Positions 53,701 to 59,700 of a DNA stretch of 64,000 nt are shown piece after piece. Numbering within the stretch: the first letter of the stretch is position 1; each line of letters starts with the position of its first letter. Source of the stretch: Candidatus Zhuqueibacterota bacterium. Its GTDB lineage: Bacteria > Zhuqueibacterota > Zhuqueibacteria > Thermofontimicrobiales > Thermofontimicrobiaceae. The stretch spans positions 73,473 through 137,472 of the forward strand of contig JBMOPW010000002.1 of assembly GCA_049322915.1 (NCBI GenBank), in the 5' to 3' direction. The position numbers were made by a program.

Positions 53701-56700
53701 TGCAAATGGATACGAGATAGGATTTGACCCGCTCTATTTTCTGATACTGGCTGTGCCGCGTCTCAATATCGGTCCTGGCGTCCTGCGGCAGGGCGTCCAT
53801 GACGCGGTCGTAGCTCCATCGGAATTTTTGCGCGGATCTGGCCAGGATTTCAATGGTCAGGGTGTGGTATTCCACCCGCTTCACAATGGCCCGCACGTCC
53901 GCGTCGCTGAAGCGATGGGCGTGCCGGGTGAAGAGCCGGCAGGCTTCGTCCTCCGGCAGGAAATCCAGAGGGATCGTGTGGAACGGGGCAATGGCATTGC
54001 GGGACGTTGCCAGCACGTGGCAGCCGGGCGCTTTGGGCAGCGCGTCAAAATGCCGGGCCAGATTGGGCGCGGCGTTATCCAGCACCAGCAGCAGGGGTCT
54101 GCGGCTTTGCAGAGTGCGCAGCGCGTTCAGGCAGGCGCTGAACTGATGCTCCGGCGGAATGTCCAGCAGGCGCAGATTGGTCAGCAGTTCGTAATTGGCA
54201 GCAATGGCCTGTTCCAGGTCCGTCTCCACTGTCAGCCAGGCGATGTGATCGTAATCGCCGTAGAAAGCGTCGACGTAGACCATGGCCAGGGTGGTCTTGC
54301 CAATGCCGCCCATGCCGTTCACCAGCACGGTCTGTTGGTGGTTCAGCAGCGCGGTTCGCAGGGCAGCCAAATCAGCCTCGCGCCCGACAATATCCTGTCG
54401 CGGCATGCGCGGCACCCGGGTCAGTTCTTTGGGGATGGCTGCCGGCCCGGGATGGAAGCGGGAGAGGATATTCAGAATGGCGTCCAGCTTGTCCGTGTTG
54501 CGGAAAATCTGTTCGCGGTAATTCTCCTCCAGCGCCAGCTTTTTCAATTCGGCGTCGGCCAATCGCCGCGCTTCGAAAATGGCCAGGAAGTCGGTCAACT
54601 GCTTTTCAGTCGGCCGGAGAATTTTGTCGTGCCAGCGCAGCGTCTCCTGCAGCCGGGGGACGTCCACGTCATGGGCATCAGCGCCGAACAGCCGTATTTT
54701 CAACAGCGCTTCGAGGAAGACCCGGGATTGATAGAACGGATATTTCCCGTCCGACTCGGCGATGGGGGAGCGGGCCTGGTATTCGTCAATGGCGGCATCG
54801 ATGACGCGCGCCAGCCGTTTTTCGAATGTCTTCGGTTTGGTGAAAATCTTGTCCAGCTTTTTGCTGATTGCGTAGGAGGCCAGTTCTTTGGCAACGAACA
54901 AGCCGATTGTTTCGATGATCATCCGCTGTCCCTTCCTGGTTTGTGCGCGAATCTGTCCGATCTCCCGGGGCTGCTGTTCCCGAGCCAGGCATGGCAGAAA
55001 CGCGCCGTAGTTTTTTTGCGCGAGCGTCGTTTCGTGGCGAATATTCTATCAACCAATAAAAGATATTTTTCCAAAAATGCAAGGGAAAAAAACAGCCCTG
55101 AAATAAATGTGGAGCGCTCCACTATTTTCTTTGAATCGCTCCGCTCATCAGAGCGGCCCTGAATTTATAATGAATGATCGCGCTGGATATGTATCCAGCG
55201 CCGGGAATAAATTGGAACGTCTGTTCCAACCGGGATGAACATCCCGAACAATCGGTATCTGTTTAATTTGTTGGAGCGCATTTCCTTTATGGAATGCGCG
55301 CATGCTGCGATGCATAAAGGCATCGCACGCCAAAATTTCCTTTGAATAGCTCCGCTCTTCAGAGCGGAGAACTCGGTGAACCAGCCGACGAACCCGGGCT
55401 TCAGCCCTGAATCAATAATGAATGATCGCGCAGGATATGTATCCAGCGCCGGGAATAAATTAGAACGTCTGTTCCTGAAGACGCTGGTGAACCCACGACA
55501 CATCGTGGTATTGGTACAATGTTGAACCAGCGCCATGCTTCAGCATGGTGATATTCTCCAAATTTTTCACATTGCATTATTCGGAGCGATGTTGTATATT
55601 AGTTCAACCTTGAAGGAAATGGGCGCCGTCCAACCGACGGACACCCATCACGCGTCGCAATGACTGGAGTCTGCCATGCCTGTGATCGTCAATGGAGAAT
55701 TCATTGAACCGGTTTTCATCCGCGAGGAAATGAATCGCCTGCGCCCCGGTTACGTGCGGCTGTTTCAGGATCAGTCACCGGAAGAACAGGAGGCGCAGCT
55801 CCGGGACTGGGCCACGGAGAACGTGATCGAACGGACGCTGATCTGGCAGGAAGCGCAGAAACAAAATATCCCGGTGACGCCGCAGCAGGTGGCAGAGGCG
55901 TTTCAGCACCTGGTGGAATCTGATGGCGGCGAGGAGGATTTTTTCACCCGGCGCGGATTGACCTGCCGGGACGTCGCGCAGGAAGTGGAGATGAAACTGC
56001 GCGTGGACCTGTTTCTGGAAGCGCTCACCCGCGATGTGAAAAGGCCGTCCCCGGACCAGGCCAGGAAATTCTACCTGAGCCATCTCGAAATGTTTCGCAT
56101 ACCTGAAATGGTGCGGGCGGCGCACATCGTCAAAACGGTGGACGATACCCATGGCGAGGACGAGGCGCTGCGGGCGATTCAGGCCATCGAGAGGGAATTG
56201 CGGGACGGACGGCCCTTCGGGGAAATTGCGGACAGGGAGTCCGATTGTCCCGGCAATGGGGGAGACCTGGGCTATTTCACCCGCGGCGAGATGACGCCGG
56301 AATTCGAGCAGCACGTCTTCTCGCTGAGCATCGGCGAAGTGAGCCCGATTTTCCGCACTGTGTTCGGATTTCACATCGCGCGCGTCACGGATAAGGAAGT
56401 CGGACGGCCTGCGGAATTCGACGCCGTGAAAGATACCATCATCCACCAGCTTTACGATGACGCCCGGACAACGCTGCTGGAGCAGTTCGTGGATCGGTTG
56501 AAAGAGACTGCACGCATCGACATTCTGCCGGACGCACCGGATTCGGCGGAGATTTTTTTCAGACAGGCGATGAAAACAGGGTCAGGCGACGCATCAGCTC
56601 AACCGCGAAAGCGTCTCGATTCGCTGCTCATCAAGCCGGCCGGGCCTGACTGCAACATGGCTTGCGCCTATTGCTTTTATCTCGGCAAGGATGCGTTATT

Positions 56701-59700
56701 TCCGGGCGTGAAAATTCACCGCATGTCCGATGATGTGCTGCGGGAAACGACGCGGCAGGCCATGGCCCGGAGCGACGGGCGCATCCATTTCACCTGGCAG
56801 GGCGGAGAGCCGACGCTGGCCGGACGTGCGTTCTTCGAACGCGCCGTGCAATATCAGGCGGAATACAGCCGCGGCGCAACTGCGGGAAACGGCCTGCAAA
56901 CCAATGGCATCCTGATCGATTCCGGCTGGGCGAAATTTCTGATGGAGCATCGCTTCCTGGTCGGGCTGTCGCTGGACGGCCCGGAACATATTCACGATAC
57001 ATATCGTCTCACTTGCAGCGGCGCAGGAACGTGGTCGCGCGTCGCCGATAGCGCCAAACGAATGCTGGATAGCGGCGTGTCGGTGAATGCACTGTCCGTG
57101 GTGACAGATTATGCGGCGCAATTCCCTGAGGAAATTTACGCTTCGCATAAGGCGCTGGGTTTAAACTACATGCAATTCATCCCGTGCATGGAAGCCGATC
57201 CTCGGGACGCCTCAAAACCGGCAGATTACTCGGTTTCGCCGCAGGCCTACGGGATATTTTTATGCGCGCTGTTCGATCTGTGGCGCGCTGATTTCATGGA
57301 TGGAAAACCAACGACGTCGATTCGCCATTTCGATTCCCTGGTGTACAGCTTTGCCGGATTGCCGGCGCCGGCATGCGAACTGCGCGCCACGTGCGGGGAG
57401 TACGTGGTTGTCGAACACACCGGTGACGTCTACTCCTGTGATTTTTTCGTCGAACCGGCGTGGAACCTGGGCAATGTGCAGGAAGGCCGATTGATCGACA
57501 TGCTGAATTCGGAGCGGCAGCATGAATTTGGACAGATCAAAGCAAAGACGCCGGACGGGTGCGCGGCCTGCCCGTGGTTGCAGCATTGCCGGGGCGGGTG
57601 TCCCAAATATCGCGACACTGCGGGCGCATCGTATTTCTGCGCCTCGTACACCATGTTGTTCAATCACGCGCACGATCACCTGGCGCAATTGGCCGATGCA
57701 TTGAAACCGAGGTGACAGACGCTCCGCAGCGGGGAAGATGATCCCGCAGAGCGCGATTCGGACGCGTGAAGCGCTGGCAATTTATCCGAAAGCGGGGCAA
57801 CGGCCCCGGCACGAAGCAGACAAACATTGAGGTGCGACATCATGATAAAACACAAATTTCTTTTTCGAATGGCGCTGGCGACGATCCTTCTGGCGTTCGT
57901 CGGCTCGAGCATAGGTCAACTGGACGAGCGTTTCGGCGCCAAAGGCGTTGAAGCCACCCAGTTTTTAGGTCAGAAAGGGCTGGTCTGGTACAAGGACTGG
58001 GAGGATTCCTATCTGCCGGAGAATTTTCCTCCGGTCAATAAACAGAAAATCTGGACAGTCGGTAAAATCGATTACCGGACCGACGATCTGGGCATGGATT
58101 ACCGCTGGATCCTTCTCGATCTGTTGGAAAAGAACGATGATGATTTCCTGCAGAGTTTGCTCAATCTGAGCCTGACCGTGGTGGACTCGAATATCGTGCC
58201 GGTCATTGGCGAATACTGGGAGACCAACCGGCCGTTGCTGGAGACCCTGATCGAGGATACGCTGGACAATTTTGAATTCACGGAAAAAATGGTGGGGATA
58301 AAATACCGGGCCACGGCGAAAAATACAGACATGGCTTTTCAGGAGCAGTTGCCGCAAATGACGCTGTCCGTGGCTTCGGACACGATTCATTTCAAAACCA
58401 ATTTCTCGGCGCTCTGGAAAACGCACATCTATATCGATGCGTGGATTTTTAATCCCAATCCGTTCAACTGGGGCTATCATTGGGAAGATGTGGGCGACGC
58501 CAACTGCAATTTCGAGACCACAGTGCATATTTACGGCACGATTGTTCTCGACGGAGCCGGCCGCGAACGCTGCCTGCACGTGAAAAAAGTGGTGGCGGAT
58601 GCCATCACCGAATCGGATATTGACTGGTCGCTGCTCGGCATTTCGTTCACCTGGGAAGGCCTGTCCGATGAAATCGAGCAACTCGTGGACAGCGAGCTCG
58701 AAGACGCCATGATCGGGGAACTCAACAAAGAGCCTATCACGTCGCCCTACTATCTGGTCGATCTGTTCGATTCGCTCTTTTCCGACGAGGTCGTGCCGAC
58801 GCAGCAGGAAATTCTCGACAGAATTTATGAAGGCGAGAAGAATTATATCCAGCGCGTATTCCGCAACGAAGCGAGCGAACGGAGCTACTGGTCCATCGGC
58901 TATGAGCCAAACTGGCTGCCGCTGTTATCCCCTGAACAATACGCGGCGTATTACACGAAATATTATCGGCTCATCAAAAGCCACAGTTCCAGCGCCAGAA
59001 TTTTAGGGCCGTCGCTTTTGCTCACGTCGGCCATCGAAAATCCCGGGGAAGCGGCCTGGCACTACATTCCTGAGCTGTTCCGCAGCATCCTCGGCGCGTT
59101 GGAGGAAGATTTCAAAAATCTTGTCATGTCCTATTTCGAGCAGACGGATTGCAAGGCCTGGTACACCGAGTTCCTGGCTGCGCTGCCGCCGGACGTCAGC
59201 GTCGATATCAATGATTTTCACGTCTTTCCCATGAACGCGGAAAGTGAGGCGGTCAATTGGGACAGCCTCCGCGCGAAAATGGATGGCATGGCTGTGTTCA
59301 TGCGCAATGCCAGCGGCGCCGATGACGTGTGGGTATCGGAATTCGGCAATGGCGACTCGCGCCGAACCGTGGACGAGGTGGCTGAACTATGCCACGGATT
59401 CTGCCAGTATTTCAAGACGAATACCGTGGGCATCGATAAATGGTTCTGGTACACTGCCAAAGGAACCAGCCCATTCTACGATATTCCGCTCACGCCGAAA
59501 CCGCCCATCAGCGCGCTGCTGGATAAAAGCAACCGTCTGACCAAAATCGGCGAGGCTTATCTGAAGGAAGCGGACAATACGCCGGCCGTGATGATTGCTG
59601 CGCCGGGCGATGAAGGCGCCGTGGCCAGCGCCAGCCGCGTGTTGTTTCACTGGGATGCGGCCCGGGAATTCGATACCGGCGTGGCGGACTACCGCCTGGA

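Follow-up and report, generated by a model that had tools for sequence, protein, structure and literature searches.

What a folding module does in front of a radical SAM enzyme is the question raised by one gene of the window, that is, the whole 64,000-nucleotide stretch of DNA from a Candidatus Zhuqueibacterota bacterium that was analyzed. The survey's finding had described the product of this gene (P0001) as a fusion of a SurA-like chaperone, a parvulin peptidylprolyl isomerase (PPIase) and a radical SAM/SPASM enzyme, without a signal peptide. We recovered the fusion as a single 679-aa ORF with the same Pfam figures (Table 1), and the missing signal peptide was borne out as well. The P0001 N-terminus, MPVIVNGEFIEPVFIREE, is charged and forms the beta-hairpin of the folded core in the AF2 model; no signal peptide, lipobox or membrane anchor was found there in the sequence, the model or the upstream frame. 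The open frame comprises 683 aa and just four in-frame codons are open 5' of the ATG, and therefore no signal peptide is gained by shifting the start. The genomic neighbors of the gene are unrelated, and no nif context is present around it.

Table 1. Features of the fusion gene and their positions in the window.
Feature	Position	Strand	Basis
Whole fusion gene P0001, 679 aa, ATG start	55676..57715	+	stop codon included; single ORF
GGAG ribosome-binding-like motif	55666..55669	+	6 nt 5' of ATG; read from sequence
Chaperone N-arm, residues 1–125 (beta-hairpin and four long helices)	55676..56050	+	SurA_N_3; AF2
Parvulin PPIase, residues 142–240	56099..56395	+	Rotamase_3, E 6.1e-21
C-terminal helix and strand closing the chaperone core, residues 248–283	56417..56524	+	AF2 H248–278, E281–283
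Low-complexity linker, residues 286–315	56531..56620	+	pLDDT <50 at 286–308; unconserved columns
anSME radical SAM/SPASM enzyme, residues 317–674	56624..57697	+	TIGR03942; 4k36_A; Foldseek
CX3CX2C radical SAM cluster motif, C326/C330/C333	56651..56674	+	invariant in 21 fused members; aligns with anSMEcpe
SPASM region, eight invariant cysteines	57374..57640	+	PF13186; alignment to anSMEcpe

The C-terminal half of P0001 is, judged by its sequence, a genuine anaerobic sulfatase-maturating enzyme (anSME) with a predicted Cys/Ser-oxidising activity. It exceeds the equivalog cut-off of the NCBIfam model TIGR03942 'anaerobic sulfatase maturase' (386.9 bits versus 349.45 over residues 317–674; 389.2 bits in the genome search), and Pfam places Radical_SAM at residues 323–471 and SPASM (PF13186) at 574–633. 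The chains 4k36/4k37 of the C. perfringens enzyme (anSMEcpe) match P0001 with E 1.8e-80. Foldseek comparison with 4k36–4k39 returns the same fold at target-normalised TM scores of 0.82–0.87, including 4k38_A (E 2e-28, TM 0.85 target-normalised, 38% identity). The cysteine set for two auxiliary SPASM clusters is present: C567, C573, C588, C629, C632, C638, C642 and C655 do not vary across 21 fused members, and D589 directly follows C588, this C-D pair aligning to anSMEcpe. The earlier description of a complete anSME-type half is confirmed. The 38% identity, the fold, CX3CX2C, the eight SPASM cysteines and the C-D pair are all common to P0001 and anSMEcpe (PDB 4K36–4K39; AslB/AtsB/ChuR class), and a further likeness to this class is that relatives of P0001 are encoded beside Cys-type sulfatases. 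Solved or named anSMEs, however, are single modules of about 370–410 aa, whereas P0001 adds an N-terminal chaperone/PPIase of 285 aa and a linker. In its own genome, which is 96% complete, P0001 is the sole anSME above the TIGR03942 cut-off.

Residues 1–285 make up a SurA/PrsA-like chaperone core plus a parvulin PPIase, without a signal. In Pfam, SurA_N_3 matches residues 4–77 (E 1.6e-6; 28.5 bits versus a cut-off of 27.2) from profile position 43 onward, and Rotamase_3 reaches 75.6 bits versus a cut-off of 22.5. H150, C191 and H233, which we take to be the catalytic residues of the parvulin, show no variation in the alignment of the fused family. The AF2 model of the isolated module (pLDDT 93.5; E3–5, E8–10, H12–118, H248–278, E281–283) has a helical N+C core surrounding the parvulin domain. 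In structure comparison, residues 1–286 align to SurA (2pv3) and LIC12922 (3nrk), and full-length structural alignments of the module were obtained with 2pv3, 3nrk, 3rgc and 9hg5_F. Its shape is like that of SurA lacking P2, or of PrsA (Foldseek 9hg5_F, 8.7e-15; VIA 2pv3_B, Z 14.5 over 267 residues; PrsA, Z 16.6), and the parvulin domain matches those of PpiC, PrsA and SurA with VIA Z 16–17 and rmsd 1–2 Å. The module thus shares with the SurA/PrsA/PEB4/PpiD proteins a helical N+C core into which a parvulin is inserted (Foldseek probability 1.0), but at an identity of only 13–24%. Those proteins are extracytoplasmic and bear a signal peptide, a lipobox or a membrane anchor; the module has none of these, and its fusion partner is an iron-sulfur enzyme of the cytoplasm. 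The full-length P0001 model has a pTM of 0.54 and a disordered linker, and therefore a fixed geometry between the two halves is not predicted.

Among the named NCBIfam models, NifM (TIGR02933; 89.3 bits) scores best on the module, and it also gives 83–95 bits, with most of the model covered, for the stand-alone relatives of the module. NifM is a cytoplasmic protein with a single parvulin, dedicated to one maturation pathway, and is thought to help the nitrogenase Fe protein, an iron-sulfur enzyme, fold or acquire its clusters. By this likeness, the module might be an intramolecular foldase through which the radical SAM half folds or is loaded with its three [4Fe-4S] clusters. Such self-maturation would fit a fusion that ties the module to the enzyme rather than to the substrate, and the cluster-binding loops are the lowest-confidence parts of the enzyme model. 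However, every NifM score lies under the cut-off of 168.2. The proposed arrangement also differs from NifM in that its client would be the protein on which the partner enzyme acts, rather than the enzyme itself.

The family of fused proteins that had been claimed is real. PPIase and Radical_SAM/SPASM families occur together in 22 of the 49 matches to the search, P0019 is a fragment with the same architecture, five further fused clusters came from an additional search, and the architecture is present in at least 26 protein clusters. Fused members are 37–73% identical, with both halves strongly conserved. Within the phylum sample, only 8 of 79 anSME-positive genomes have the fusion; among the other genomes with the fused gene, six of seven encode one anSME above the cut-off and the remaining one (G073) encodes two. 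No module lies in the flanks at 71 of the 80 closest anSME loci. The module is thus dispensable for the pathway, because these loci lack it and most anSME-positive genomes lack the fusion. Self-maturation is further weakened by unfused anSMEs at 50–61% identity whose flanks hold no module, and by four Planctomycetota-labelled genomes in which no module was found anywhere. In the enzyme tree the fused state is scattered, and starred branches require at least three changes.

Many fused relatives also end in a SEC-C (PF02810) tail, a zinc-binding C-terminal pattern of C-x-C-(8)-C-C, which had been reported as common among them and lacking here. This proved correct, as 16 of 21 aligned fused members carry the tail and P0001 lacks it, with no remnant 3' of the stop codon; but it is not specific to the fusion, since 33 of 71 unfused anSMEs of the clade have it too. 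It characterises the anSME clade as a whole. Its presence on about half of this clade represents a second unexplained coupling device.

Split and reduced forms of the fusion are also found. At locus L094, the module gene comes after four sulfatase genes and is separated by 8 nt from the anSME gene that follows it. At L038, a 76-nt spacer separates the module gene from the anSME gene, and the locus also encodes two sulfatases, FucU, RhaA and GH95. In both, the split junction falls at the linker of the fusion (residues 286–315). Two other variants, L026 (which adjoins a sulfatase gene) and L034, have lost the parvulin domain and kept the N helices and the C helix of the 248–283 segment. Moreover, a stand-alone module that groups with the fused ones lies between sulfatase and fucosidase genes (L104), and both at this locus and at L180 the module stands by sulfatase genes with no adjacent anSME. 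A tree in which the 24 anSME-linked modules all form one clade was not rejected (p-AU 0.506).

The folding module is not confined to this maturase; it is one branch of a large family of signal-less stand-alone proteins of about 285 aa (536 matches at E <= 1e-8). The stand-alone sample comprised 80 metagenome loci, 45 in a signal-less clade and 33 in a clade with longer N-terminal open frames. At 10 of the 80 loci, a true FGE, the aerobic formylglycine enzyme that is not homologous to anSME, is encoded directly 3' of the module on the same strand, with gaps of 12–132 nt (E 1.4e-111 versus 6s07; three of these FGE genes are cut off at the contig end). The FGE-linked modules form one starred clade (99), in which the two members without FGE have no downstream DNA; as the link is confined to one clade, it may reflect one ancient operon and not repeated recruitment. 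TatC follows the module directly at 3 of the 80 loci, at two tree positions, and a sulfatase does so at one. One module is divergent from a distant anSME (L144; TIGR03942, 425.7 bits) and another is fused to an anSME (L168). The linked loci total 16 of 80, and 15 of the 16 belong to the 45-locus signal-less clade, whereas in the clade whose N-terminal open frames are longer, none of the 33 loci shows a link to FGE, anSME, TatC or sulfatase. Coupling of the same family to FGE, which is no iron-sulfur enzyme and has an unrelated fold, as well as to TatC and to sulfatase genes that have no anSME next to them, argues against a foldase for the radical SAM half, and we consider self-maturation improbable.

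These contexts also bear on the view that the module is a general cytoplasmic chaperone/PPIase, its fusion and operon links being neutral accidents of gene order that persist through drift or through co-expression in shared conditions. The family is big and its contexts are mainly housekeeping-like: 30 of the 45 signal-less metagenome loci have unrelated contexts, and the 14 loci sampled from family f9 (L109–L121, L124) all lie beside MgtC/DUF4010, RDD, DeoC and similar genes. The rarity of the fusion among anSMEs and its scattered occurrence in the enzyme tree agree with this view. However, four genes of a single pathway (anSME, FGE, TatC and sulfatase) are linked to the module in several clades versus none of the 33 sister-clade loci, both halves stay strongly conserved across the divergence of the fused members, and the linker is the exact split point in two lineages. 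A general role with accidental linkage thus seems quite unlikely.

As candidate substrates, two sulfatase-family genes of this genome had been put forward. One is indeed a sulfatase (G000:C7, locus L001; PF00884, 192 bits, plus SGSH_C), the genome's single true one, located on a different contig from P0001; it is of the Cys type (CAPSR) and has a twin-arginine (RR) signal. The second gene encodes a type I phosphodiesterase (PF01663, 317.6 bits). Sulfatases encoded beside the module are likewise Cys-type with an RR signal, in 8 of 9 cases by eye and 7 of 8 by pattern. It could therefore be asked whether the module proofreads Tat substrates by binding the RR signal peptide or early mature region and blocking export until formylglycine has formed, an explanation set apart from the one favored below by what is bound and why. 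RR signals on nearly all neighboring sulfatases, the TatC genes directly 3' of the module at two tree positions and the TatC encoded in the genome itself are in keeping with it. But RR signals and Cys-type sites are equally frequent beside unfused, module-less anSMEs (45 and 47 of 48), and the module has no kinship in sequence or fold to known Tat chaperones, none of which is among the Pfam matches of P0001. TorD, DmsD and NapD are Tat-substrate-specific chaperones that serve cofactor insertion, not side-chain oxidation; they resemble the proposed system in its outcome, a twin-arginine precursor that does not leave the cytoplasm before its active site has been completed, and differ from it in having no homology to the module. 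We judge Tat proofreading unlikely.

The best explanation, to which we assign a probability of about 60%, is that the module is a client-directed holdase/isomerase for sulfatases before their export, with client binding and holdase action that we infer. We read it as client-directed because anSME and FGE share nothing but their substrate. The C-x-P-x-R motif is buried in a folded sulfatase, formylglycine is needed before folding, and the Tat pathway carries folded proteins. P0001 would be a cytoplasmic two-part sulfatase maturase, in which the SurA/PrsA/NifM-like chaperone half would bind the unfolded sulfatase precursor and leave the motif open to the tethered enzyme. The anSME half would oxidise the Cys of the motif in the new sulfatase to formylglycine by radical SAM chemistry, and the parvulin may isomerise the X-Pro bond within the motif. 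The modified sulfatase would then fold and exit via the Tat pathway. The survey's finding had proposed such a built-in chaperone for a cytoplasmic precursor, and several observations speak for it: the split gene pairs in sulfatase operons (L094, L038), the parvulin-less variants (L026, L034) that retain the chaperone helices, a sister-clade module upstream of FGE and others by TatC, a sulfatase or a distant anSME, and the Cys-type neighboring sulfatases with twin-arginine signals. Against it, the majority of anSMEs in the clade do without the module, RR/Cys-type sulfatases are just as common beside unfused anSMEs, most stand-alone relatives have unrelated contexts, and the FGE link is confined to one clade. 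The one true sulfatase of this genome also lies away from P0001, the two halves have no predicted fixed geometry, and the top named family of the module, NifM, has an iron-sulfur enzyme as its client.

The proposed tethering of a substrate to a radical enzyme through an N-terminal capture domain has a parallel in SuiB, CteB and ChlB (RRE/PqqD-like plus radical SAM/SPASM), which are among the structural relatives of the P0001 enzyme half in Foldseek (9gm3, 5wgg/5why, 5v1q). Their N-domains capture the substrate by leader binding. These are small winged-helix domains for short leader peptides, while the module of P0001 appears suited to a whole unfolded protein.

The presence of relatives of the module beside both activating enzymes suggests that sulfatase maturation includes a chaperone step that has gone unrecognised, and we found no literature on a chaperone module in this process. 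More broadly, though with somewhat less than an even chance, signal-less NifM/PrsA-like parvulin chaperones may be an unrecognised third component of formylglycine-sulfatase biogenesis, serving both anSME and FGE. Until the catalytic residue has formed, such a chaperone would hold the twin-arginine precursor unfolded and possibly set the conformation of the proline in the motif; modification would thereby be coupled to Tat export, and the P0001 fusion would be the most explicit form of this arrangement. To our knowledge, how bacteria order the translation, modification, folding and export of sulfatases has had no explanation so far, and a chaperone module attached to both unrelated formylglycine enzymes would give a concrete, testable answer. 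Conversion is often incomplete in recombinant sulfatases and aldehyde-tagged proteins, and it could be improved by a holdase devoted to this step or by a maturase that is fused in nature. Finally, the finding would give a function to a large family currently annotated just as 'peptidylprolyl isomerase'.

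The gene of the fusion protein P0001 is a single open reading frame, listed with the other features in the table below. Its frame extends just four codons 5' of the ATG (open frame of 683 aa), so a hidden signal peptide is impossible, and the survey's finding that the N-terminus carries no signal is upheld. The Pfam figures of the survey were likewise reproduced exactly, namely SurA_N_3 at residues 4–77, Rotamase_3 at 142–240 (E 6.1e-21), Radical_SAM at 323–471 and SPASM at 574–633. One contig of the probable source sequencing run spans the entire gene with 0 differences, and reads of other studies match it in short pieces only; one of these, X2 (213 nt), spans the boundary between linker and enzyme half.

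For the C-terminal half, residues 317–674 reach 386.9 bits with the NCBIfam model TIGR03942 "anaerobic sulfatase maturase" (curated cut-off 349.45). They align with the entire solved anaerobic sulfatase-maturating enzyme (anSME) of Clostridium perfringens (E 1.8e-80), an alignment that takes in both CX3CX2C and the SPASM-region Cys-Asp pair. The predicted model of P0001, built from an alignment of 21 fused homologues, gives target-normalised TM-scores of 0.82–0.87 against 4k36–4k39. All members of the family alignment keep the three cysteines of the radical SAM motif and eight in the SPASM region. Judged by the alignment, the fold match and the invariant cysteines, this half is predicted to be an ordinary, intact anSME. 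Residues 286–308 are predicted to be disordered, the pTM of the whole protein is 0.54, and the model gives the impression of two beads on a string.

The N-terminal half, here referred to as the module, was modelled alone (residues 1–290, 52-sequence alignment) with pLDDT of 93.5 and pTM of 0.76. The predicted structure comprises an N-terminal beta-hairpin, four long helices, the parvulin domain at 142–240, and a long C-terminal helix and strand that pack back onto the N-terminal part; as modelled, this layout is the SurA/PrsA/PEB4 arrangement. Foldseek retrieved SurA 9hg5_F (8.7e-15) and 2pv3 (1.3e-13), and VIA-align gave Z 14.5 over 267 residues against SurA without P2, Z 14.6 over 271 residues against LIC12922, Z 16.6 against PrsA, and Z 16–17 with rmsd of 1–2 Å against isolated parvulin domains. 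His150, Cys191 and His233, which we take to be the parvulin active-site residues, are invariant in both family alignments. The SurA_N_3 match begins at profile position 43, and thus the signal or anchor part of the periplasmic relatives is absent. SurA and PrsA are defined by their extracytoplasmic feature, whereas the module lacks it, though predicted to work in a SurA/PrsA-like manner. Among named NCBIfam models the best is NifM, yet its 89 bits are below the cut-off of 168.2, so by score the module is not NifM. A NifM-like role, in which the module would serve the maturation of the enzyme half itself, agrees with this ranking and not with the score, and we regard it as quite unlikely.

The family of fused proteins claimed by the survey proved to be real. 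A search with residues 1–310 among proteins of 373–1189 aa gave 49 matches, 22 of which possess parvulin together with Radical_SAM/SPASM families, and a later search among proteins >504 aa added five further fused clusters; P0019 is a fragment with the same parvulin-anSME architecture. Both halves are strongly conserved in the 21-member alignment (mean column identity 67%), and 16 of the 21 members end with a SEC-C motif. We then scanned for anSMEs in one genome per species, which yielded 599 pattern matches, 567 of them confirmed, and the best 80 of these 567 were kept. Nine of the 80 loci have the module and can be divided into three types. First, module and enzyme are fused in five loci, L018–L022. 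Second, they are separate adjacent genes in L038 and L094, whose split points fall at the linker (stop, 76-nt AT-rich spacer and ATG in L038; stop, 8 nt and ATG in L094). Third, the parvulin domain is cleanly deleted in L026 and L034, with the N-terminal helices and the C-terminal helix kept. In L026, L038 and L094 the enzyme part scores above the TIGR03942 cut-off, and the module-bearing loci come from MAGs labelled KSB1, Neomarinimicrobiota, Calditrichaceae and Ignavibacteria. Since the parvulin-less variants retain the helices, the helical chaperone core is suggested to be the indispensable part of the module; in SurA, too, the chaperone core is reportedly indispensable. In the source phylum sample (151 genomes), 79 genomes have an anSME above cut-off and eight of the 79 a fused open frame. 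G017 and G011 of this sample, where the open frames measure 550 and 591 aa, are possibly identical with the records of L026 and L034. A further copy, L103, contains in-frame stops (two TAA in the module part, one TAG in the enzyme part) and may be broken, split or recoded; its genome, G132, additionally encodes an intact unfused anSME.

Moreover, the module exists as a stand-alone protein. Among proteins <373 aa, residues 1–300 found 536 matches at E <= 1e-8, and the best 120 of them are 249–319 aa long, with 37–48% identity and 88–97% query coverage. All eight members that we read share the N-terminus M-x-L-x-V-N-G-E without a signal peptide. No NCBIfam model for this family was found, NifM again being the top one below its cut-off. 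We scanned metagenome contigs with the stand-alone-family alignment and kept 80 loci, in 16 of which a formylglycine-pathway or Tat gene directly adjoins the module (in seven of the 80, <150 nt of DNA lies 3' of the module). In ten, the next gene 3' of the module, in the same orientation and 12–132 nt away, encodes FGE, the aerobic formylglycine enzyme; contig ends cut three of these FGE genes. As for the others, in L168 module and anSME share one fused open frame, which reaches the contig end; the module of L144 divergently adjoins a distant anSME (TIGR03942 425.7 bits, 39% identity to the enzyme half of P0001); TatC is downstream in L140, L157 and L166, and a sulfatase in L180. The module-linked FGE matches Thermomonospora FGE 6s07 (E 1.4e-111) and human FGE (1.4e-101), retains the C-x4-C pair and by eye has no signal peptide; on sequence grounds it is a genuine FGE. 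Fusions of module and FGE were sought as well, and PF03781 was present in 0 of the 120 matches listed among proteins >504 aa and in none of the 49 among proteins of 373–1189 aa.

Module trees were made with FastTree (126 rows) and IQ-TREE quick (63 rows), excluding P0001's own locus (L098), the parvulin-less L026 and L034, and rows <200 aa; both concur on the main groups. A starred branch divides the signal-less family (89 rows) from 37 rows with open frames 34–147 codons longer upstream. The signal-less clade, with 45 metagenome loci, holds 15 of the 16 pathway/Tat associations, the sixteenth (L180) being too short for the tree, and the longer-frame clade holds 0 in 33 metagenome loci. Elsewhere, a clade with Planctomycetota-named proteins has the module beside thymidylate-synthase-like and NrdR genes, and a clade of the source phylum (family f9) has it beside MgtC/DUF4010, RDD, DeoC or 2-thiouracil desulfurase genes. 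The module could also be a generic chaperone whose linkage to sulfatase-maturation genes is accidental; such neighbours would suit this reading and the distribution of pathway/Tat associations would not, and we consider it quite unlikely. At E <= 1e-30, no module was found in four Planctomycetota-labelled genomes; a fifth, Terriglobia-labelled genome has three matches with open frames of 353–392 aa.

Twelve rows make up a starred clade (support 99) of FGE-linked modules; its two members without FGE, L146 and L164, are followed by 66 and 0 nt of DNA. Most anSME-linked modules also cluster (24 rows, support 83 in IQ-TREE), including 19 of 20 fused rows and L104, a stand-alone module between sulfatase and fucosidase genes. 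When the 24 fused, split or broken rows are constrained to be monophyletic, the log-likelihood falls by 0.09 units (p-AU 0.506); a single origin of anSME-linked modules is not rejected, nor is it shown. In the enzyme-half tree (102 rows), the backbone is poorly resolved and fused copies are interspersed among unfused ones, the starred branches requiring at least three state changes. The anSME-linked and FGE-linked clades share P192, G193, I168 and E269 (>=80% in each), residues that the remaining signal-less clades rarely show (<=24%). P192 and G193 may point to parvulin action on the motif proline, as a lead only.

anSME and FGE show no relation in sequence, fold or cofactor, and to our knowledge have nothing in common but a substrate, namely the C-x-P-x-R segment of a sulfatase in its unfolded state. 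Because the module is fused or adjacent to the former, adjacent to the latter and elsewhere beside TatC or a sulfatase, the simplest explanation is that it acts on the shared substrate. We therefore favour, with a probability of about 0.6, the reading that it is a client-directed holdase for the sulfatase. The C-x-P-x-R motif becomes buried once the sulfatase has folded, and a tethered holdase would give anSME time at the motif before that burial. The neighbouring sulfatases are Tat-routed, so both modification and folding have to be finished in the cytoplasm.

The module could instead be directed at the sulfatase signal peptide for Tat proofreading, a reading to which the neighbouring TatC genes would lend some colour. 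RR signals (one pattern) occur in seven of eight sulfatases beside module loci (eight of nine when judged by eye) versus 45 of 48 beside unfused anSMEs, and Cys-type motifs in 8/8 versus 47/48. Tat signals are thus equally usual beside unfused anSMEs and were rejected as a hallmark of the module; we hold Tat proofreading to be unlikely. No module gene was found in the flanks of 71 unfused anSME loci. SEC-C-like tails are carried by 33 of these 71 (within L023–L096) versus five of the nine module-bearing loci (L018–L021, L038), and SEC-C was rejected as part of the fusion: it is a trait of the whole anSME clade. This SecA-like zinc-binding tail (GRNDPCPCGSGKKYKKCCG type) ends about half of the clade regardless of the module; its partner in SecA is the ribosome or SecB.

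The source assembly (6.25 Mb, 45 contigs, 96% complete) has the P0001 gene as its sole match above the anSME cut-off. Of the two sulfatases that the survey offered as candidate substrates, one stands: L001 (537 aa, on G000:C7) is the only true S1 sulfatase, with PF00884 at 192 bits and SGSH_C; its twin-arginine signal reads DRRQFLRIAG and its motif C-A-P-S-R. The other proved to be a type I phosphodiesterase (PF01663, 317.6 bits); the weak third match is a metalloenzyme-superfamily protein. TatC is encoded in the genome. There are also 13 PF03781 matches, several within open frames of 600–1100 aa, in this genome with its single sulfatase; probably not all are formylglycine enzymes.

The direct neighbours of the P0001 gene have no relation to sulfatases, and L018 has an equivalent neighbourhood. 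The caspase and NB-ARC/TPR pair, which precedes the fused gene of L018 as well, looks conflict-system-like and unconnected with the fusion. Scans found no promoter-like site at the gene and no terminator-like site between it and the next gene (57715–57827), so co-transcription with the downstream genes is possible. The upstream intergenic region holds 72-nt and 54-nt direct repeats, two copies each, with a palindromic core; this element has 44 matches over the source-genome contigs and looks like a dispersed REP/MITE-like repeat. The M48 peptidases beside the module/maturase pairs of L038 and the FGE-linked L132 share just 28% identity.

Features of the P0001 gene, its surroundings and related loci (coordinates are those of the window unless a locus or contig is named)
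Feature	Coordinates	Strand	Remark
Caspase-family protease	50395-51267	+	upstream of P0001 gene
NB-ARC/TPR STAND protein	51632-54922	-	1096 aa; adjoins caspase-family protease
Repeat element	55100-55570		intergenic
Read-depth spike	55484-55567		probable source run; within repeat region
GGAG motif	6 nt ahead of P0001 ATG	+	sequence reading
P0001 fusion gene	55676-57715	+	single ORF, 679 aa
I168	56177-56179		common to anSME-linked and FGE-linked clades
P192, G193	56249-56254		directly after invariant Cys191
E269	56480-56482		common to anSME-linked and FGE-linked clades
Piece X2	56553-56765		linker to enzyme half
Glycosyl-hydrolase-like protein (812 aa, FlgD_ig), ABC sugar-binding protein, two permeases	57827-63642	+	downstream; syntenic in L018
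PF03781 matches (examples)	G000:C3:11700-12410; C45:78172-78837		source genome
L026 parvulin-less variant	L026:8224-9876		550 aa; sulfatase divergent; NAGLU-family enzyme in locus
L034 parvulin-less variant	L034:10001-11767		588 aa; ATP sulfurylase gene precedes
L103 module-anSME copy	G132:C193:4202-6254		in-frame stops
L019 context			FGE-family gene adjoins
L022 context			TauE sulfite exporter and alpha-L-fucosidase adjoin
L038 context			LacI regulator, FucU, module, anSME with SEC-C tail, M48 peptidase, sulfatase, RhaA, GH95, second sulfatase
L094 context			four consecutive sulfatase genes, module gene, anSME gene
M48-family peptidase genes	L038:4007-4744; L132:1464-2489		beside module/maturase pair
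FGE-linked module loci			L131, L132, L134, L136, L137, L141, L143, L145, L155, L170

Public databases already contain the fused architecture, under the name "anaerobic sulfatase maturase" or without a name. In the full-text literature we found neither anSME nor FGE linked with a chaperone or prolyl isomerase, a point on which key structural and review papers may bear, and no paper that ties the SEC-C motif to anSME/FGE or radical SAM enzymes. P0001 would be an enzyme of known type bearing, in a new setting, a substrate-handling module whose fold is known, and there is a fair chance that the module represents a new accessory factor with a general part in sulfatase maturation.
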